A stretch of DNA of 64,000 bases from Candidatus Gottesmanbacteria bacterium RIFCSPLOWO2_01_FULL_43_11b. GTDB lineage: Bacteria; Patescibacteriota; Microgenomatia; UBA10105; UBA927. Shown here in pieces: positions 39,145 through 45,659 of the stretch (position 1 is its first letter; every line of letters begins with the position of its first letter). The translations under genes were made by a program, and so were the position numbers. The notes beneath the pieces are model-generated. The model worked only from the letters and a program-made list of their open reading frames with translations, did not search any database and was not told the DNA's origin. The stretch spans positions 158,980 through 222,979 of the forward strand of contig MFJV01000001.1 in the NCBI GenBank assembly GCA_001780985.1, read 5' to 3'.

Positions 39145-39878
39145 TACGTCCCTAGCGTAGCATATTTGAGGTATTCGAGAATCATCTTGTAAAGTCTTTT
39201 TATATGGGGAGTAACATTTCCGGTCTGCTGCTTTGCAACTTCTCTGGTCAAATCAATCGCCTCCTTAATGTATGAAACGGTTCCCTCCTGGAAGGTCTGT
39301 TTTTCATATTTTGTGAGAATTGAGACAAAGGGCATATTCACGTACCGAACATCTCTTTTTTTAAAATAGTTATTGAGAAATAGTTCCACACCGTATCCTA
39401 AATGTTTAATCTCTCCTAAAATCGGAAGAAGGTCATCGCGTTTGATCGCGCGTTCTCCCCCGATTGGCTTTGCGAGATTCGGCCGCTTTTTATTTGTCTG
39501 TCGGACGCCAATTGTCATGACTGCCTGCTTTCGGATAACGGGAGCAATAAGTCGATCGAGATCGCGATGCGTGAGACCAATCAGATCCCCGTCGAGAAAG
39601 AGGACATACCTGGCTTTAGCTATCTTAACGCCTGCGACCATCGCAAACGCTTTCCCTTTATTTTTCTTATACGAAATAACCTGTACCGTTTTTCCGAACT
39701 GCTTTACTGAGGCAACCGTATCGTCCGTTGATCCGTCGTTCACCACAATAATTTCGGCGGCTTTCCCCCAGGTCCTCACAATCTCAACAACTCCCGGCAG
39801 GGTCCGCTCCTCATTGTAAACGGGAATTATTACTGATAGAGTTGGTGTGGTCATTTGGGAAAGTATACCATGATTCAA
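39144..39878 (-). CDS. family 2 glycosyltransferase
   Basis: LSVIIPVYNEE start and a DGD motif (FLDGDL). Confidence 0.8.
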   Translation of the reverse strand: MNHGILSQMTTPTLSVIIPVYNEERTLPGVVEIVRTWGKAAEIIVVNDGSTDDTVASVKQFGKTVQVISYKKNKGKAFAMVAGVKIAKARYVLFLDGDLIGLTHRDLDRLIAPVIRKQAVMTIGVRQTNKKRPNLAKPIGGERAIKRDDLLPILGEIKHLGYGVELFLNNYFKKRDVRYVNMPFVSILTKYEKQTFQEGTVSYIKEAIDLTREVAKQQTGNVTPHIKRLYKMILEYLKYATLGT

Positions 39879-40310
39879 AGAGACATTATTATTTTTGTTG
39901 TCATTCAGCTTGCCATGGCACTATTTGCCTTCGCTGAGGCGTACATGGAGGGTCCGAACGGGTGGAAATGGAATCCAAAGTGGTGGCGCATTAATCTGCC
40001 CGGTGGATTTACCCTCAATAGCTATCACGTCTTTGTTTTCGCAGGTGTGTTTCCTCTTCTCCTTTCTTTACCATTAATAGTCAACGGCTGGAACAACCAT
40101 CTGTTTCTCGTTCTTCTTTTATCCTATGTGGTAGGGTTAATAGTAGAAGATTTTCTCTGGTTTGTCGTTAATCCTGACTATCCATTTCGAAAATGGAATC
40201 CGAAAGAGACGCGCTGGTATCCGTGGGTGATAATCGGAAAATTTGCCATCCCCCTCCCCTACGTTTTTGTCCTATTTGTTTCCGGTCTACTCATCTCGCT
40301 TATTTTGTAA
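39855..40310 (+). CDS. hypothetical integral membrane protein
   Basis: 151 aa with 4 hydrophobic helices. Confidence 0.55.
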   Translation: MGKYTMIQRDIIIFVVIQLAMALFAFAEAYMEGPNGWKWNPKWWRINLPGGFTLNSYHVFVFAGVFPLLLSLPLIVNGWNNHLFLVLLLSYVVGLIVEDFLWFVVNPDYPFRKWNPKETRWYPWVIIGKFAIPLPYVFVLFVSGLLISLIL

Positions 40311-41437
40311 ACATCCATAAGTTGGCTCCAGGATACTTTGCTATCATACTTTTGTCTTGCCTCTTTCTGACCGTTTGATGCGAGAAACAAGCGTTTTTCT
40401 CTATCACTCATAAGTTCCAGGACGCGTTGTGCAAAAACTTTGGGTGAGTGCTTAAAAACAATTCGACCCGTAACTCCATCCTGTAAAAGATCGATGATCG
40501 ACGGGCCTTTGAGAGCAATCACGCATAGCCCTGCTGCCATCGCCTCAACAATCACCCGTCCGTATGTTTCGGTTTGTGACGCATAGACAAACGAATCTGC
40601 AACTGCGTATATGTCCGGAATTGTTTTTATATTCTCATTCGTTGCGAAGAGGACATTGTTTGCAAATTTATGTTTTCTCGCGTATTCTTTCAACTTCGTC
40701 TCTTCCAATCCGTTACCCGCGAGCAAAAGTTTGATCTTCGGTGCTTTCTTATGAATGTAGGAGAATGCTCGTACAAGAAAATAGATATTTTTCTCTCTTG
40801 CAAGCCTGCCAACATAGAGAAGCACCATATCATCTTTATCTATCCCCAATCTCTGTCGGGCAACTCTTCTGTTGCCACTGGCAAATTCAACGGTGTCAAT
40901 TCCGGGAGGAACGACAAAAATAGGCGTACGCACCCCTCCTTGTAAGAGTTCTTGTTTGAGTGTTTCATTGGCAGCAGTTACTGCATCACATTTATTTATA
41001 AAATTAACCATGATTTTTGTCACAAAATGAGAAAGTGCCGTACCTGAAACCCAGGGTAAATATGACCTAAAGTAATCTGAATAGCGTGTGTGGTAAGTAA
41101 AAACAACAGGAATATGAAATTTCTTTTTCATTTTCAATGCAAGTTTTCCGATATAAAAGGGGTGGTGAACATGAAAAAGTGTAATGTGACGTCTTCGAAT
41201 TTCATTTTCAATCGTCGTTTCCGGAAACATGGGTATGGTTATGCCGATTTTTTTATAAAGCGGTATGGCGGGATACTCTACAACATCGGGCTGGTTTGAC
41301 TTTTTCCAATCTGCCTGTGAAGTAAATACGGTCATGTCAACACCACTCTGTTTTGCCTGGCTTTTCCAGTCACCGATGGTAATAACTACCCCGTTAATAA
41401 TCGGATAGTAATAGTATGTAAATACGCCAACGTGCAT
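40259..41437 (-). CDS. GT4-family (group 1) glycosyltransferase
   Basis: GT-B C-terminal pattern: VGRLAREKN..., E..G....EAMAAG. Confidence 0.82.
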   Translation of the reverse strand: MHVGVFTYYYYPIINGVVITIGDWKSQAKQSGVDMTVFTSQADWKKSNQPDVVEYPAIPLYKKIGITIPMFPETTIENEIRRRHITLFHVHHPFYIGKLALKMKKKFHIPVVFTYHTRYSDYFRSYLPWVSGTALSHFVTKIMVNFINKCDAVTAANETLKQELLQGGVRTPIFVVPPGIDTVEFASGNRRVARQRLGIDKDDMVLLYVGRLAREKNIYFLVRAFSYIHKKAPKIKLLLAGNGLEETKLKEYARKHKFANNVLFATNENIKTIPDIYAVADSFVYASQTETYGRVIVEAMAAGLCVIALKGPSIIDLLQDGVTGRIVFKHSPKVFAQRVLELMSDREKRLFLASNGQKEARQKYDSKVSWSQLMDVYKISEMSRPETNRTKT

Positions 41438-41440
41438 TTT

Positions 41441-41500
41441 TTACCTCCCAAACCACGTTTCCAAAATTTTCTTCGCGATGGGAGCTGCGACATTAATTGT
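41441..41500 (-). repeat. diverged duplicate of the mrdA 3' end (encodes NVAAPIAKKILETWFGR*)
   Basis: About 80% nucleotide identity by hand alignment to 42236..42295. Most differences are synonymous. Its GGGAGG provides the Shine-Dalgarno sequence for the GT4 gene. Confidence 0.85.
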
Positions 41501-41514
41501 TTTTTTGCAGCACT

Positions 41515-41916
41515 TCAATCGCTTCTTTGGGTATCATTAATTTCCTTTGGTTTAAGGAATTTTTTTACTTTTTCCGTCATAAAATGCTTGCGGTCAAGAG
41601 TGACGAGAGCGTCACATGAGGCTTTTTTAGCTTCAGCAAGAATAATCGCGTCTTTTTCTACAATAATCCTTCTTGCCTTACTCATTGCCGTATGGTCGGG
41701 TTTTTGGTCAATAATGGAAAGTTTTTCTGCCAGAAGAAAAAATCGCTCGAGGTGATACGTTTGCAGTTTTTTTCGGACATTTCGTTCAACCTCTGTGAGC
41801 ACGACCTTGGAAGTGACAAGTTCTACGCCATGAAGAGTAAACAGTTTTGCCGACCCGCCTGTCGGAGAGTTCACTGCAGTAAAAAAGACGCTTGAGTCCA
41901 AAAACAGGCGTTTCAT
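41515..41916 (-). CDS. vapC: PIN-domain toxin (VapC-like)
   Basis: 133 aa. FLDSSVF N-terminal acidic motif and TLDRKHF C-terminal motif. Immediately follows the antitoxin gene. Confidence 0.75.
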   Translation of the reverse strand: MKRLFLDSSVFFTAVNSPTGGSAKLFTLHGVELVTSKVVLTEVERNVRKKLQTYHLERFFLLAEKLSIIDQKPDHTAMSKARRIIVEKDAIILAEAKKASCDALVTLDRKHFMTEKVKKFLKPKEINDTQRSD

Positions 41917-42174
41917 TTAGAGGACGTCGTTTTTCTCCCACTCGGCAATCTCTCGATCACTAAATATTCGCGTGAACGGAAGAAGTACGGGATCGATAAA
42001 CGTTTTTTTGTAGAGTTTGCTCAGGTCTTTTTGGAGTTTGGCAAGGTAAGCAACATCAACGAGCGCTGCTTTTGGCATGCCGCCCTTGGTGAGAATAATA
42101 TAATCATCACCCTGCACTTTATCAACAAGATCACCCAGTTTCCCTCGTGCTTTCGTGATAGGAAGAATATTCAT
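41917..42174 (-). CDS. Phd/YefM-family antitoxin
   Basis: 85 aa with ITKARGKLGDLVDKV..YIILTKGGMPKAALV, a Phd/YefM pattern. Confidence 0.75.
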   Translation of the reverse strand: MNILPITKARGKLGDLVDKVQGDDYIILTKGGMPKAALVDVAYLAKLQKDLSKLYKKTFIDPVLLPFTRIFSDREIAEWEKNDVL

Positions 42175-42235
42175 AGAAACAAAGCATACTATACGTTACA
42201 TATTTTGTCAAGTATTATGTAACAAATAATGTACA

Positions 42236-43942
42236 TTACCTCCCAAACCACGCTTCTAAAATCTTTTTTGCAATGGGGGCAGCAACATTACTTCCCTCGC
42301 CCGCACCCTCTACTAATACTGTAACAGAAATTTCGGGATCTTCTGCCGGAGCAAACGTTGTAAACCAGGCATGGGTTCGATTATTAGGATCACCGAATTC
42401 AGCTGTTCCGGTTTTACAGGCAACGGAAATTTGAAAATCAAATAATGGCCAACCGGTCCCGCCCGAAGTACATGCTTCCTTCATCCCTTGCGTAATAAGA
42501 TCGATCGTTTCTTTTTGAATATTTAAACCCTTACACTCACTTTTGAGCTTCCGTATCGTTGGCTTACACACAATACCTCCATTGGCAACAATATTTGTCC
42601 ATGTATTTACCTGTAGGGGGGTTGTAAGTAAATATCCTTGTCCGATTGCGACATGATACGTATCTCCCAGGTACCATTCGTTATTTCGTAACTCCCGATC
42701 TACTTCCGTATTAAATTGGAGATTCTTCCAGGAAGGATCCGGCATGAGACCGGCAGCTTCTCCGCTTATTTCTATTCCCAATGGTTTTCCTATACCGATG
42801 TTTCGTGCCCATGCAGCAAGTTTGGTTATCCCTAACCATTCTCCTGTTTTATAAAAGAAAATGTCATTACTCCGTTGAATTGCCTTGACAATATCTACCA
42901 TTCCCTCAGTTTTCCCGTACTCCCGAAAGTACCAATTGGGAAATGTGAACGGCGGGATGCGTATAACACCCGTATCTTCTACTTTTGTATCTTTATCTAT
43001 CGCCCCCTCTTCAAGAGCAGCGATTGCCGTGACTATCTTAAATGTAGACCCGGGAGGATACACACCGCCTATTGCACGGTTAAAAAGCGGCTCATCAGGA
43101 CTATTTAAAACTGTTTCTACGTGTTCGGGAACAAATGATGGGCTTGAGAAAAGAACAAGTATTTCGCCGGTCGATGGTTTGCTGACAACCACCGCGCCTT
43201 TTGAGCCTAAGGGAAATTCTTTGGCAACAATTTGCGCAAGTCCTGCGTCGACAGAGAGCGTGACATCTTCGCCCGGACTTGCCTCTTCTCCTCCCAAACT
43301 TCGTACTATATCACCGTTTGCTTCTATTTCTACTAATTCCCTCCCGTCACGACCGCGCAGCCGCTCTTCAAACGCTGATTCGGCACCCATTCTGCCGATA
43401 AATGAACCGGGAAGGTAGTTTCTGAGCACGTAGTAATCATCTGCGAATTCTTTTGGACTGAGTTCCCCCATGTAACCAAGGACGTGTGCGAGTGCTTCTC
43501 CATATGGATACTGGCGGATATATTCACTTTCCAAAAACCAACCCTTTGGGAGTCCTTCGTTGGAAAGCTGATCTCCTTCTTCCTGACTTATTCTCTCTGT
43601 ACATACCTCTCCTTCTCTACATAGTTTTGTGAGTATGTACCGGGGAATATTAACGGTCAGAGCTTTCCCCGTGCGATCAAGTAAGACCCCTCGTGCAGCA
43701 TGTCTGATAAGATCGCGTGTTCTATTGGTATCGGCAAGCAACCTGTATCTGTGTCCTTGTACGAGGGTCAGTTCAAATAATCGCCAAACGAGAATAAAAA
43801 AGGCAACAAGAAAAACTGTCGTAAAAAAGAGAGCACGGCCTTTTCCGAACCACCAGCTTACCTCTTCTTCTTTCACCACACGCCGTTTCACTTTTTCTTC
43901 AAGGATTAGGTTATCGGAAAAAGCTTTTCCAAGTTTCAACAT
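42236..43942 (-). CDS. mrdA: penicillin-binding protein 2 (class B transpeptidase)
   Basis: N-terminal TM, then STFK, SND and KTGT motifs. The neighbourhood includes mreB. Confidence 0.88.
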   Translation of the reverse strand: MLKLGKAFSDNLILEEKVKRRVVKEEEVSWWFGKGRALFFTTVFLVAFFILVWRLFELTLVQGHRYRLLADTNRTRDLIRHAARGVLLDRTGKALTVNIPRYILTKLCREGEVCTERISQEEGDQLSNEGLPKGWFLESEYIRQYPYGEALAHVLGYMGELSPKEFADDYYVLRNYLPGSFIGRMGAESAFEERLRGRDGRELVEIEANGDIVRSLGGEEASPGEDVTLSVDAGLAQIVAKEFPLGSKGAVVVSKPSTGEILVLFSSPSFVPEHVETVLNSPDEPLFNRAIGGVYPPGSTFKIVTAIAALEEGAIDKDTKVEDTGVIRIPPFTFPNWYFREYGKTEGMVDIVKAIQRSNDIFFYKTGEWLGITKLAAWARNIGIGKPLGIEISGEAAGLMPDPSWKNLQFNTEVDRELRNNEWYLGDTYHVAIGQGYLLTTPLQVNTWTNIVANGGIVCKPTIRKLKSECKGLNIQKETIDLITQGMKEACTSGGTGWPLFDFQISVACKTGTAEFGDPNNRTHAWFTTFAPAEDPEISVTVLVEGAGEGSNVAAPIAKKILEAWFGR

Positions 43943-43981: not shown

Positions 43982-45121
43982 ATGAATCATGAATGCAGTC
44001 CGATGCACGAACAACCGGCCGAGTGGCTGGTCACCAGTCTCCCTAAAATAAGAAAAGTAAATTCGCTATTACCGAAAAACCTTCATTCTAATAATCTGCG
44101 TTCTTTCGAGCATGCTCGTCTTACCACGCTCGAAGAAAGTTGGCTTGACACGACTGGTATCCGGCCACAGGAAACCCATTGTACTATTATCATACCAGTC
44201 CACAATGAGCACCGTAGTCTCCCCTCGTTTTTACGTGCATTAATGGCTTCCCAAATTCCCTCGAGTGCGGATTTACACTTTGTATTTGTCGTAAATGGAT
44301 CTAATGATGATAGCGCTGCTATTATATACGACCGGTTATCTGACTTTCATTCTTTTGGTGACATCCGCTATACCGTTATGGAAACCGTAATCGCTGGCAA
44401 AGCAAATGCATTAAACATTGGAAACGACATCGCTCTAAAAAACCACCACACGATCGCAATGAACATTGATGCGAACAACTGGGTTGAACCCGATACAATA
44501 CCGTTGTTGTTTAAAAGAGCGCATCAAGAATTCAGCGATAATCCCGGTGATGTTGTTTTAGTAGATGCAAAGGCGATCTACGCGATCAAAAATAATACGC
44601 AGAGCCCCATTGATCGTTTCTGGTTTCGAGTAAAAGGTAATAACGTTCATACCCCACTTCTGACAGGATGGATGTATGCTTGGAATCCTGAGTGGATAAA
44701 TGAGGTGGGAGGATTCCCTTCCACGGTAACCGAAGACAGCGCTATAGCGATAGAAGCTCTCGCTCGAGGCCGACGTATTGTACATTCGTCGGCTCGAATC
44801 TGGGGATATATTTCTTCGACACTTGTTGATCGACAAAAAGAATTTACCAGGTATCTTCTCGGTGCAGTACAGCTTCTTCGCCACTTTGGTCGAACTTCGC
44901 TTCTACAAAACGCCATCAGTCCCGAGTATCCTCTTGATAAATCTATGTGGGAAACACTGCAATATTTTTTTGATGATTCTACACGTGGCAAAAACATCGC
45001 GCACTTTCCCTTGAGTCTCATAAAATGGATACGATATGAATATAGCCTTCTTATCGCTACATTGATACTTCGAAAAAAACCGGATATTCAAACGTGGGCT
45101 CCCATTAAATCGACGAAGTGA
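43982..45121 (+). CDS. family 2 glycosyltransferase-like protein
   Basis: TIIIPVHNEHRSLPSFL and a DAN/DxD-like region. Confidence 0.65.
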   Translation: MNHECSPMHEQPAEWLVTSLPKIRKVNSLLPKNLHSNNLRSFEHARLTTLEESWLDTTGIRPQETHCTIIIPVHNEHRSLPSFLRALMASQIPSSADLHFVFVVNGSNDDSAAIIYDRLSDFHSFGDIRYTVMETVIAGKANALNIGNDIALKNHHTIAMNIDANNWVEPDTIPLLFKRAHQEFSDNPGDVVLVDAKAIYAIKNNTQSPIDRFWFRVKGNNVHTPLLTGWMYAWNPEWINEVGGFPSTVTEDSAIAIEALARGRRIVHSSARIWGYISSTLVDRQKEFTRYLLGAVQLLRHFGRTSLLQNAISPEYPLDKSMWETLQYFFDDSTRGKNIAHFPLSLIKWIRYEYSLLIATLILRKKPDIQTWAPIKSTK

Positions 45122-45659
45122 ACATAACGAGCATCCACGAGTAGATTGCTCCCAAAATAACCTGCAATACCGTATGATTTTTCGTTTCCACCCTCGCCCA
45201 AGCAATTAATGGAATCATCAAAAATACCTGCCACCACCCAAACCACTGGGTTACAACTCCTGCTGCTAACGTCGCAATCCCCACGTGTCCTGAAATTTTA
45301 TACTTCAATGTGATGAGGAAAAATCCCAAGAACCAGATGAAAAAAAGTATAAAAAGATTGATGAGTATTTCATTATTCCATGTTCGGATAAGGAAGAAAT
45401 TTCCTATAGTAACAGCGAGAAGTACAAGAAGCGGGAGGATTCTTTTCTTCCGCTCACGAATGTCCCAATCGGTTTTTAGTCGGAGCATTATAAAGAATTT
45501 AAAAATGAAAATAGCGCCAAAAAAAATCGAAATATACAAAATATAGAAGGATAATTGTGAAGCAATGAGATTGCTCCGAAACCCCCCGATGATAGAAAGT
45601 GCATAAAGCACTAACATCGGCTCGAAAAGGCGGGAAATAAAAGACGCAAGAAAAACCAT
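45105..45659 (-). CDS. hypothetical integral membrane protein
   Basis: 184 aa with 5-6 hydrophobic helices. Lies immediately downstream of mreB. Confidence 0.55.
   Translation of the reverse strand: MVFLASFISRLFEPMLVLYALSIIGGFRSNLIASQLSFYILYISIFFGAIFIFKFFIMLRLKTDWDIRERKKRILPLLVLLAVTIGNFFLIRTWNNEILINLFILFFIWFLGFFLITLKYKISGHVGIATLAAGVVTQWFGWWQVFLMIPLIAWARVETKNHTVLQVILGAIYSWMLVMFTSSI

Follow-up and report, generated by a model that had tools for sequence, protein, structure and literature searches.

Integrase-mediated genomic islands and integrative and conjugative elements (ICEs) can target the 3' ends of genes, and their integrase-less derivatives form cis-mobilizable elements, such as those of streptococcal ICEs. 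Homology-facilitated illegitimate recombination (HFIR) has been described, as has "C-terminal displacement", which leaves orphaned 3' regions in Rhs, CDI (contact-dependent growth inhibition) and type VI secretion system (T6SS) effector loci (PMC5361080, citing de Vries & Wackernagel 2002, Prudhomme et al. 2002 and Jackson et al. 2009). In Neisseria, minimal mobile elements (Saunders & Snyder 2002) are alternative unique loci found at syntenic positions (PMC1797815), and in Microcystis a ParDE-like TA module downstream of MaOC1 is flanked on both sides by identical 152-bp intergenic direct repeats with internal inverted repeats (PMC7935541). This study concerns a 64-kb stretch of DNA (the window) from an uncultured groundwater bacterium, Candidatus Gottesmanbacteria, belonging to the Microgenomates of the candidate phyla radiation (CPR). 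In this window, a Phd-PIN cassette of the toxin-antitoxin (TA) type is located between mrdA and a gene encoding a GT4-family glycosyltransferase, and is bracketed by the 3' end of mrdA and a diverged duplicate of that end. We consider it probable that the TA operon was imported between the two genes by homologous recombination of the host, leaving the displaced mrdA terminus of the recipient behind. The mrdA 3' end is best read as a hotspot of homologous recombination, and the TA pair as one integrase-less cassette that has spread through it. Gene exchange is poorly understood in CPR bacteria (Patescibacteria), which have small genomes with few recognisable transposons, integrases or plasmids; the locus offers a concrete, testable case in which a conserved housekeeping terminus serves as an anchor for TA pairs, regulators and secreted proteins.

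The genes mrdA, phd and pin and the GT4 gene are all found on the minus strand of the window. The mrdA gene (42236..43942) encodes a class B penicillin-binding protein 2 (PBP2) of 568 aa (Pfam Transpeptidase 3e-57, PBP_dimer 6e-21; 451 bits with NCBIfam pbp2_mrdA, for which the cut-off is 455), and the GT4 gene (40259..41437) encodes a protein of 392 aa (Pfam Glycos_transf_1 2e-37, Glyco_transf_4 1e-25). A repeat search revealed that the last 58 nt of mrdA (42236..42293) recur as a direct repeat at 41441..41498, at a distance of 795 nt and with 83% identity, which refines the hand alignment of about 60 nt and about 80% identity in a preliminary description of this DNA. It is the sole direct repeat of at least 30 nt within 6 kb, low-complexity sequence aside, in the whole window. 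Local alignment of the terminal 60-mer of mrdA gave a best score of 66 elsewhere in the window, about 22 sd above the maxima obtained with 100 dinucleotide shuffles (mean 25.6, sd 1.8, highest 34), and the similarity is thus far beyond chance. The homology of the two copies begins at an Asn codon, with one further base in common on the 5' side, and stops exactly at the TAA. Over the 18 codons from Asn to stop there are nine differences, of which eight are synonymous third-position changes and one replaces Ala by Thr. The near-identity of the two peptides reported earlier is thereby confirmed: the functional mrdA end reads NVAAPIAKKILEAWFGR-stop, preceded by Ser, and the displaced terminus, or remnant, reads NVAAPIAKKILETWFGR-stop, preceded by Ile.

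The position of the remnant relative to the GT4 gene was also found to be as originally described. Its TAA (41443..41441) is separated from the GT4 ATG (41437..41435) by a spacer of 3 nt, and the GGGAGG at 41449..41444, inside the remnant and 6 nt before this ATG, is predicted to serve as the Shine-Dalgarno sequence of the GT4 gene. At its other end the remnant is joined to the PIN stop codon by a short spacer (41499..41514, minus strand, read from the sequence), which forms the right-hand junction of the cassette. The arrangement resembles the Microcystis module in having a TA pair immediately behind a host gene, with a direct repeat on either side; it differs in that the repeats are the diverged coding terminus of the neighbouring gene and form no hairpin. 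Short peptide-coding duplicates of this kind beside operon genes should be neither annotated as genes nor dismissed as noise.

Between the two copies lies a complete Phd/YefM-PIN operon with its own promoter, as previously claimed and as borne out by profile matches and a promoter scan. The antitoxin gene comes first (41917..42174, minus strand; 85 aa, Phd/YefM family, Pfam PF02604 at 33.0 bits with a cut-off of 29.8, NCBIfam phd_fam TIGR01552 at 38.4 with a cut-off of 20.8). The PIN start codon follows directly after the Phd stop codon (TAAATG) on the same strand, and the toxin gene (41515..41916, minus strand) encodes a PIN-domain, VapC-like protein of 133 aa (Pfam PF01850 at 36.9 bits with a cut-off of 23.6), which reached 25 bits with NCBIfam TIGR00305, under the cut-off of 29.15. 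Its acidic residues D7, E42, D89 and D108 are invariant in 27 homologues, and 510 matches to PIN homologues were obtained in CPR metagenomes. The promoter/operator region (42175..42235, minus strand) is found directly after the mrdA stop codon. It contains a sigma-70-like promoter, TTGACA-17-TATGCT (42211..42183, minus strand; -35 element at 42211..42206, -10 element at 42188..42183), which begins 25 nt past the mrdA stop codon, and an imperfect palindrome, GTTACAT / ATGTAAC, around the -35 element (inverted repeat I1). This combination of a promoter-like site with palindromes points to a putative TA promoter of the autoregulated type. The motif ATGTACA..TTGTTACAWAATACTTGACA of this region is conserved in five of the metagenome loci used for comparison, which are labelled with L-numbers (L091, L143, L164, L165 and L169). 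We rejected a dif/Xer-like site after the mrdA stop codon, as the palindrome is the conserved TA promoter/operator in all contexts of this TA family.

The gene pair resembles type II Phd/PIN TA systems in its abutting, co-oriented genes with the antitoxin first, its domains above the Pfam cut-offs, its four acidic residues and its promoter with palindromes, and is predicted from these features to be active as such a system. It differs in being embedded in an mreB-mrdA-GT4-dprA-topA string of cell-wall and housekeeping genes and in having no terminator after the cassette. Downstream of the GT4 gene, the order is a GT2 gene, dprA (identified with Pfam) and topA; upstream of mrdA are a PAP2-like gene and mreB. 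No terminator-like site was seen between the PIN and GT4 genes on the minus strand, and the TA promoter therefore probably also feeds the GT4 gene. Placed inside the mreB-mrdA-GT4 cell-wall operon, it could alter the expression of downstream envelope genes. GC content and GC content at third codon positions (GC3) do not separate the cassette from its flanks. Taken singly, the cassette is an accessory TA module of the ordinary kind; what is unusual is how clearly its insertion scar can be read.

With regard to the occupancy of this site in other lineages, a metagenome collection was scanned with the degenerate pattern AKKILExWFGR-stop, which yielded 71 loci, and gene order was determined by tblastn with the window proteins. 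In a separate scan derived from a GT4 alignment, the back-translated patterns were too generic, and the sole Gottesmanbacteria locus among 80 was L011. The closest GT4 protein outside the species shows 61% amino-acid identity. Empty sites, the lack of which would have spoken against the earlier reading, exist: in four Gottesmanbacteria relatives (L094, L128, L129 and L131), the junction reads ...TGGTTTGGAAGATAA-N-ATGCATATCGG, with the mrdA stop codon 1 nt before the GT4 ATG. These relatives support the earlier proposal that mrdA was originally followed directly by the GT4 gene, and direct adjacency is a plausible ancestral state. Other lineages carry different occupants. L011 has a reverse-oriented melibiase-like gene between mrdA and the GT4 gene, L159 has an insert of 1.1 kb that reads like the L011 melibiase-like gene (its product was not scanned), and L139 retains a 64-nt relic of such a gene. 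The same syntenic site is thus empty, occupied by a melibiase-like gene or occupied by the TA pair (the window, L091, L143 and L164), depending on the lineage. The relatives of the window PIN found directly after mrdA, behind the conserved promoter/operator motif, are those of L164 (73% identity, the closest), L091 (66%) and L143 (60%). In L143 and L164, a reverse-oriented gene follows the PIN gene and there is only a decayed remnant (EEWF.. and GKKILLELFFR-stop). A rough neighbour-joining tree of mrdA spreads out the four lineages that carry the TA pair and places L091 as sister to L128 and L131, both of which have the empty site.

This pattern is reminiscent of the minimal mobile elements, with which the locus shares a syntenic site bearing alternative cassettes or nothing, the lack of mobility genes, spread by recombination in conserved flanks and a dprA gene in the same operon. 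In the minimal mobile elements as described, both flanking genes are conserved and no terminus duplications are present, whereas here the duplicated terminus can replace the right flank, and the cassette is therefore also found in lineages with a different downstream gene (L143 and L164).

The locus that is most informative about the origin of the two copies is L091, which has the full mrdA-Phd-PIN-remnant-GT4 layout. Its remnant reads NVA-PVAKKILEEWFGR-stop; relative to the resident mrdA end, it shows six synonymous changes and the in-frame deletion of one codon. Between the window and L091, the TA proteins are 66-69% identical, and the two remnants have the same 5' boundary, with an Ile codon (ATT/ATA) where functional mrdA has Ser. 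When L091 was compared with the empty-site lineage L128, the divergence changed at the cassette. To the left, it amounts to 81/363 mismatches (22.3%, plus a 15-nt indel) at mrdA positions -450 to -54 and to 9/54 (16.7%) at the functional mrdA end. To the right, it amounts to 4/51 (7.8%) in the remnant, 30/450 (6.7%) in the first 450 nt of the GT4 gene and 27/450 (6.0%) in the next 450 nt. The difference between the part left of the remnant and the remnant with the first 450 nt of the GT4 gene is significant (Fisher exact P=5.6e-11, reference L128). The remnant hence belongs to the right-hand, L128-like haplotype, and the cassette came with several hundred bases of diverged mrdA (~400-500 nt upstream of the repeat). 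These sequence comparisons support the view that the L091 remnant is the displaced terminus of the recipient and that the mrdA 3' region left of the cassette is foreign. The remnant is 92% identical to the L128/L129 ends and 88% to its own resident copy. Among Gottesmanbacteria lineages (L091 compared with L096, L128 and L131), mrdA is a mosaic, with identities of 62-100% in 90-nt windows, which indicates frequent homologous exchange between lineages at this locus. The claim that recombination brought in the cassette along with an mrdA terminus from another lineage is thus supported for the window, but only by analogy with the L091 haplotype switch, and the functional copy at 42236..42293 probably arrived with the cassette from the donor.

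The nature of the differences between the copies points in the same direction. Neutral decay of an in-situ duplicate was rejected for the window alone (P=0.002), and for the window and L091 together, in which 14/15 differences are synonymous, with P=4e-6, even if the functional copy drifts synonymously. In both loci the two terminus copies differ like functional alleles, and the same trend is seen in L108, L121 and L136. For comparison, the functional mrdA ends of 69 lineages have a mean pairwise nucleotide identity of 78% (5-95% range 68.5-87%), their proteins being 41-64% identical. We also considered concerted evolution or gene conversion, by which the remnant would track the resident mrdA, and rejected it: functional ends are ~78% alike anyway, and the L091 remnant is closer to L128/L129.

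Under the import that we favour, a type II TA operon would have been brought between the translationally abutting mrdA and GT4 genes by the recombination machinery of the host, not by an enzyme of its own. The incoming DNA would have consisted of the 3' part of the mrdA gene of a diverged relative and the TA operon, with the left crossover inside mrdA and the right junction ~54-57 nt before the end of the recipient's mrdA. This right junction could have arisen by an illegitimate join, as in HFIR. Alternatively, the donor cassette could already have had a remnant attached to it, which then underwent a second homologous crossover with the mrdA end of the recipient. This second route is favoured for the TA cassette because the window and L091 remnants have the same 5' boundary, including the Ile codon. 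The product would be an intact mrdA with a donor-type end, the cassette and the recipient's displaced terminus, which would keep the Shine-Dalgarno sequence and the stop-start spacing needed by the GT4 gene. Given a donor-type end and a recipient terminus, the copies would be expected to differ as two functional alleles do, almost only synonymously. The duplication would be retained because mrdA and the GT4 gene abut: as the GT4 Shine-Dalgarno sequence is predicted to lie within the final codons of mrdA, both genes would keep working only after insertions in which the terminus is duplicated. The displaced terminus would then be a molecular scar recording both donor and recipient.

The insertion history resembles HFIR and C-terminal displacement: a conserved upstream gene serves as the anchor, new DNA is found downstream of it, the old 3' end is retained further down, and where events recur, orphaned ends build up into arrays such as those of L104 and L149. 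In the present case, what is displaced is only 30-58 nt of a PBP2 gene with a housekeeping role, as opposed to a toxin domain and the immunity gene that belongs to it; the cargo bears no relation to the anchor, the retained piece holds the predicted ribosome-binding site of the next gene, and the hosts are CPR bacteria. The locus differs from known phenomena in this use of an ultra-conserved PBP2 tail as an anchor, in a terminus that doubles as a ribosome-binding site, in its unrelated cargo and in its hosts.

Several observations weigh against the import and have to be set beside this evidence. The window remnant matches its own mrdA end at 83% identity (rank 4th of 69) and the best other end at 87%, and none of the other sampled lineages is clearly nearer to it than the window's own mrdA. 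The donor and the recipient of the window cassette are assigned by analogy with L091 only, as the window has no close cassette-free relative. As the genomes are mosaic, the haplotype switch of L091 could in principle be a separate recombination event with an edge that coincides with the cassette. No empty site was found within the species: in look-ups with the exact proteins (PIN, GT4, a 99% variant of PIN and mrdA), every contig carries the cassette, and this fixation in every sampled contig means that no ongoing mobility is seen. The scan pattern requires an intact peptide, and the intactness of most remnants is therefore partly an ascertainment effect. At position 13 both window copies have a rare xCG codon, and their last 17 nt are identical; this could reflect local duplication or local origin, gene conversion or a crossover tract. 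Among mrdA ends as a whole, the identical 17-nt stretch is the best conserved part as well. Finally, the remnants are intact where the GT4 gene follows (the window and L091) and decayed where a reverse gene follows (L143 and L164), a pattern that could reflect selection rather than age.

These last two observations are also what would be expected if the repeat had been generated in situ, as a long target duplication at an ancient cassette insertion, and if the remnant had been kept by selection as a translated relay coupling the PIN and GT4 genes. The reading frames are in line with this alternative. In the window, a TTG overlapping the PIN TGA (TTGA) opens a possible 25-codon open reading frame (ORF; 41441..41518, minus strand, from frame analysis), which runs through the remnant to the TAA beside the GT4 start; in L091, there is a TTG just before the PIN stop codon, and the remnant is in the same -1 frame. 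A role of this ORF as a translational-coupling relay to the GT4 gene is speculative. Coupling would need an open frame and not a particular peptide, yet 14/15 differences are synonymous. Moreover, the L091 remnant belongs to the L128-like haplotype of the GT4 side (7.8% divergence), whereas its own mrdA is 16.7% divergent at the end and 22% in the flank. Intact remnants also occur without an in-frame start codon or an adjacent downstream gene (for example in L112, L145, L154 and L155 and as the second remnant of L104). The TA proteins of the window and L091 are so far apart that an equally old remnant, neutral or weakly selected, should be unrecognisable. We therefore regard this in-situ origin as unlikely. 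A programmed -1 frameshift from PIN into the remnant was examined as well and rejected, given that no canonical slippery heptamer is present and that, in the window, a stop codon in the -1 frame occurs six codons before the PIN stop codon.

With regard to the mobility of the cassette, cargo from six loci was scanned with Pfam, and no integrase, transposase or recombinase domain was found; this holds for the window cassette and for the cargo proteins scanned in L104, L108, L136, L149 and L155. A transposon-like insertion with a target-site duplication was considered, since the ends of the window cassette carry a 12-nt imperfect inverted repeat (I6). Across eight homologous cassettes, inverted terminal repeats are at chance level, and the 12-nt pair of the window is not conserved in the seven others. 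At 22-58 nt in length and with 17% divergence, the duplications do not qualify as target-site duplications. Chance or an assembly artefact is no better an explanation: the repeat is far above the shuffles, and the same layout is found in contigs of independent metagenome assemblies that encode identical PIN or mrdA, as far as the contigs reach, so that the layout is no assembly artefact. Such an insertion or artefact is extremely improbable. Transposons and insertion sequences were accordingly rejected, there being no transposase and no conserved inverted terminal repeats and the duplications (22, 48 and 58 nt) being diverged. An integron gene cassette was rejected too, as no attC-type folding and no integrase were found: the repeat strands fold no better than shuffles as attC-like hairpins (z-scores -0.7 to +1.3), and an Rfam search gave nothing credible, only a sub-threshold snoRNA match. 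Of the "small mobile TA island" that had been proposed, the TA cassette stands, and its mobility is limited to what host recombination provides, as there are no mobility genes, inverted terminal repeats or attC hairpins.

Displaced mrdA termini were found to be widespread. Each locus was searched with its own terminal 60-mer of mrdA, and displaced termini were identified downstream of the resident mrdA in L104 (two), L108, L121, L136, L146 and L149 (two). L112, L145, L154, L155 and L122 carry detached termini, which are not directly preceded by mrdA. Including L143, displaced or detached termini occur in at least 12 of the 71 scanned loci, about one sixth. Their 3' boundary is the stop codon, or a degraded stop position in L121, and their 5' boundary varies from -30 to -57 nt. 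The cargo is equally varied and includes a PaaX/Cas2-like protein in L104 (the homologous region of L112 was not scanned separately), a DUF2283 protein with an MqsA-like antitoxin in L149 and large secreted proteins in L155. The idea of a single TA island has to be broadened in this respect: the cassette itself is fixed in the sampled contigs of the species, and the phenomenon is wider, as displaced mrdA termini bracket many kinds of cargo in related lineages. The tail NVAAP[IV]AKKILEEWFGR-stop is conserved at the nucleotide level across very divergent lineages and would thus act as a portable homology arm. The mrdA 3' end would in this way become a hotspot in which different cassettes without integrases build up, each event adding to a series of displaced termini. 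The conserved PBP2 tail might also have a function of its own.

Direct repeats of a 3' end and tandem accretion, here with two remnants each in L104 and L149, are classic signatures of integrase islands, and a site-specific recombinase with its gene elsewhere might accordingly use the mrdA 3' end as its attachment site. The cassette would then be a non-autonomous integrative element with attL and attR and no integrase of its own, comparable to the cis-mobilizable elements of streptococcal ICEs. The identical 17-nt stretch of the window copies could then be the crossover core. The likeness to 3'-end islands and ICEs extends to the direct repeats that flank the insert, the regeneration of the target gene and the tandem accretion. 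Nevertheless, the differences outweigh it. No integrase or recombinase domain was found in the scanned cargo proteins, and there is no fixed crossover core, as the boundaries vary and the L091 copies differ throughout their 3' part. The foreign DNA of L091 extends ~400-500 nt into mrdA upstream of the repeat, which is not a product of site-specific integration, and analogous duplications in the same TA family involve genes as different as mreB (5' end) and ytxH (3' end). Site-specific integration by a recombinase encoded elsewhere is therefore quite unlikely, and import by host homologous recombination remains the reading that we prefer.

These other gene ends were found in the neighbourhood of further Phd-PIN cassettes. 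In L165 (Gottesmanbacteria metagenome-assembled genome GCA_016204905; also L166-L168), a homologous Phd-PIN pair lies immediately upstream of mreB, bracketed by a duplication of the 5' end of mreB (48 nt, diverged; MLDFLFGLF..; 2009-2056 and 2842-2890), in which the differences in the first nine codons are synonymous. In L170 (3620-3650 and 4406-4435), and likewise in L172, the pair follows a ytxH-like gene with a 22-nt duplicate of the ytxH 3' end. The last ~9 codons of the PIN gene in these two loci (..TRNGKSLS-stop) come from the duplicate of the ytxH 3' end (..TRNGKPLS-stop), and the toxin thus carries a borrowed C-terminal tail. In L169, the Phd-PIN family is found after topA with no detectable duplicate.

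A more far-reaching proposal is offered tentatively, as possible but doubtful. The ultra-conserved final 30-57 nt of mrdA may serve Gottesmanbacteria and neighbouring Microgenomates as a universal, enzyme-free "docking arm" for cassettes, so that a cassette with its displaced copy would move by double crossover into very divergent genomes, whatever lies downstream; arrays of cargo between displaced termini would functionally be an integron without an integrase, and the Phd-PIN family would repeat the same trick at the mreB 5' end and the ytxH 3' end. If true, this would give CPR bacteria, in which classical mobile elements are scarce, a general means of gene flow.

Some loci with displaced termini showed additional features. 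L104 (3598 nt, oriented minus) contains three copies of the mrdA terminus in one locus (373-476 and 2224-2259). The order is the resident end (..KEWFSR-stop), a palindromic insert of ~70 nt (TGTCATTCTGAGTGAAACGAAGAATCC...GGATGACA), terminus 1, the PaaX/Cas2-like gene and terminus 2. The cargo of L108 (4072-6083) and that of L136 (926-2724), both in oriented coordinates, consist of a conserved gene pair encoding proteins of ~92 aa and 506-579 aa with no Pfam match. In L122 (1-1419), a membrane-protein ORF of >470 aa continues in frame into a displaced terminus of mrdA, finishing with ..VAKKILEEWFGR-stop; this fusion may be due to chance or to tail capture.

The neighbourhood of mrdA in the window presents a further irregularity. 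A GT2 glycosyltransferase gene (43982..45121, plus strand) is located in reverse orientation between the PAP2-like gene (45105..45659, minus strand) and mrdA. In all relatives examined (L091, L094, L128, L131, L143 and L011), the PAP2-like gene lies directly before mrdA, and this GT2 gene is therefore a second lineage-specific insertion in the cell-wall operon. A bracketing duplicate around the GT2 gene was looked for, and none was found. On the other side of the locus, an ORF for a hydrophobic protein of 151 aa (39855-40310, plus strand) overlaps the 3' end of the GT4 gene by ~50 nt on the opposite strand, and this ORF is also called as a gene (146 aa) in metagenome contig L001. Finally, Pro/Thr-rich low-complexity coding repeats with ACNCCN periodicity (families D1 and D2) were observed in three places between 53654 and 57890, and these are presumably linkers of large secreted or surface proteins.

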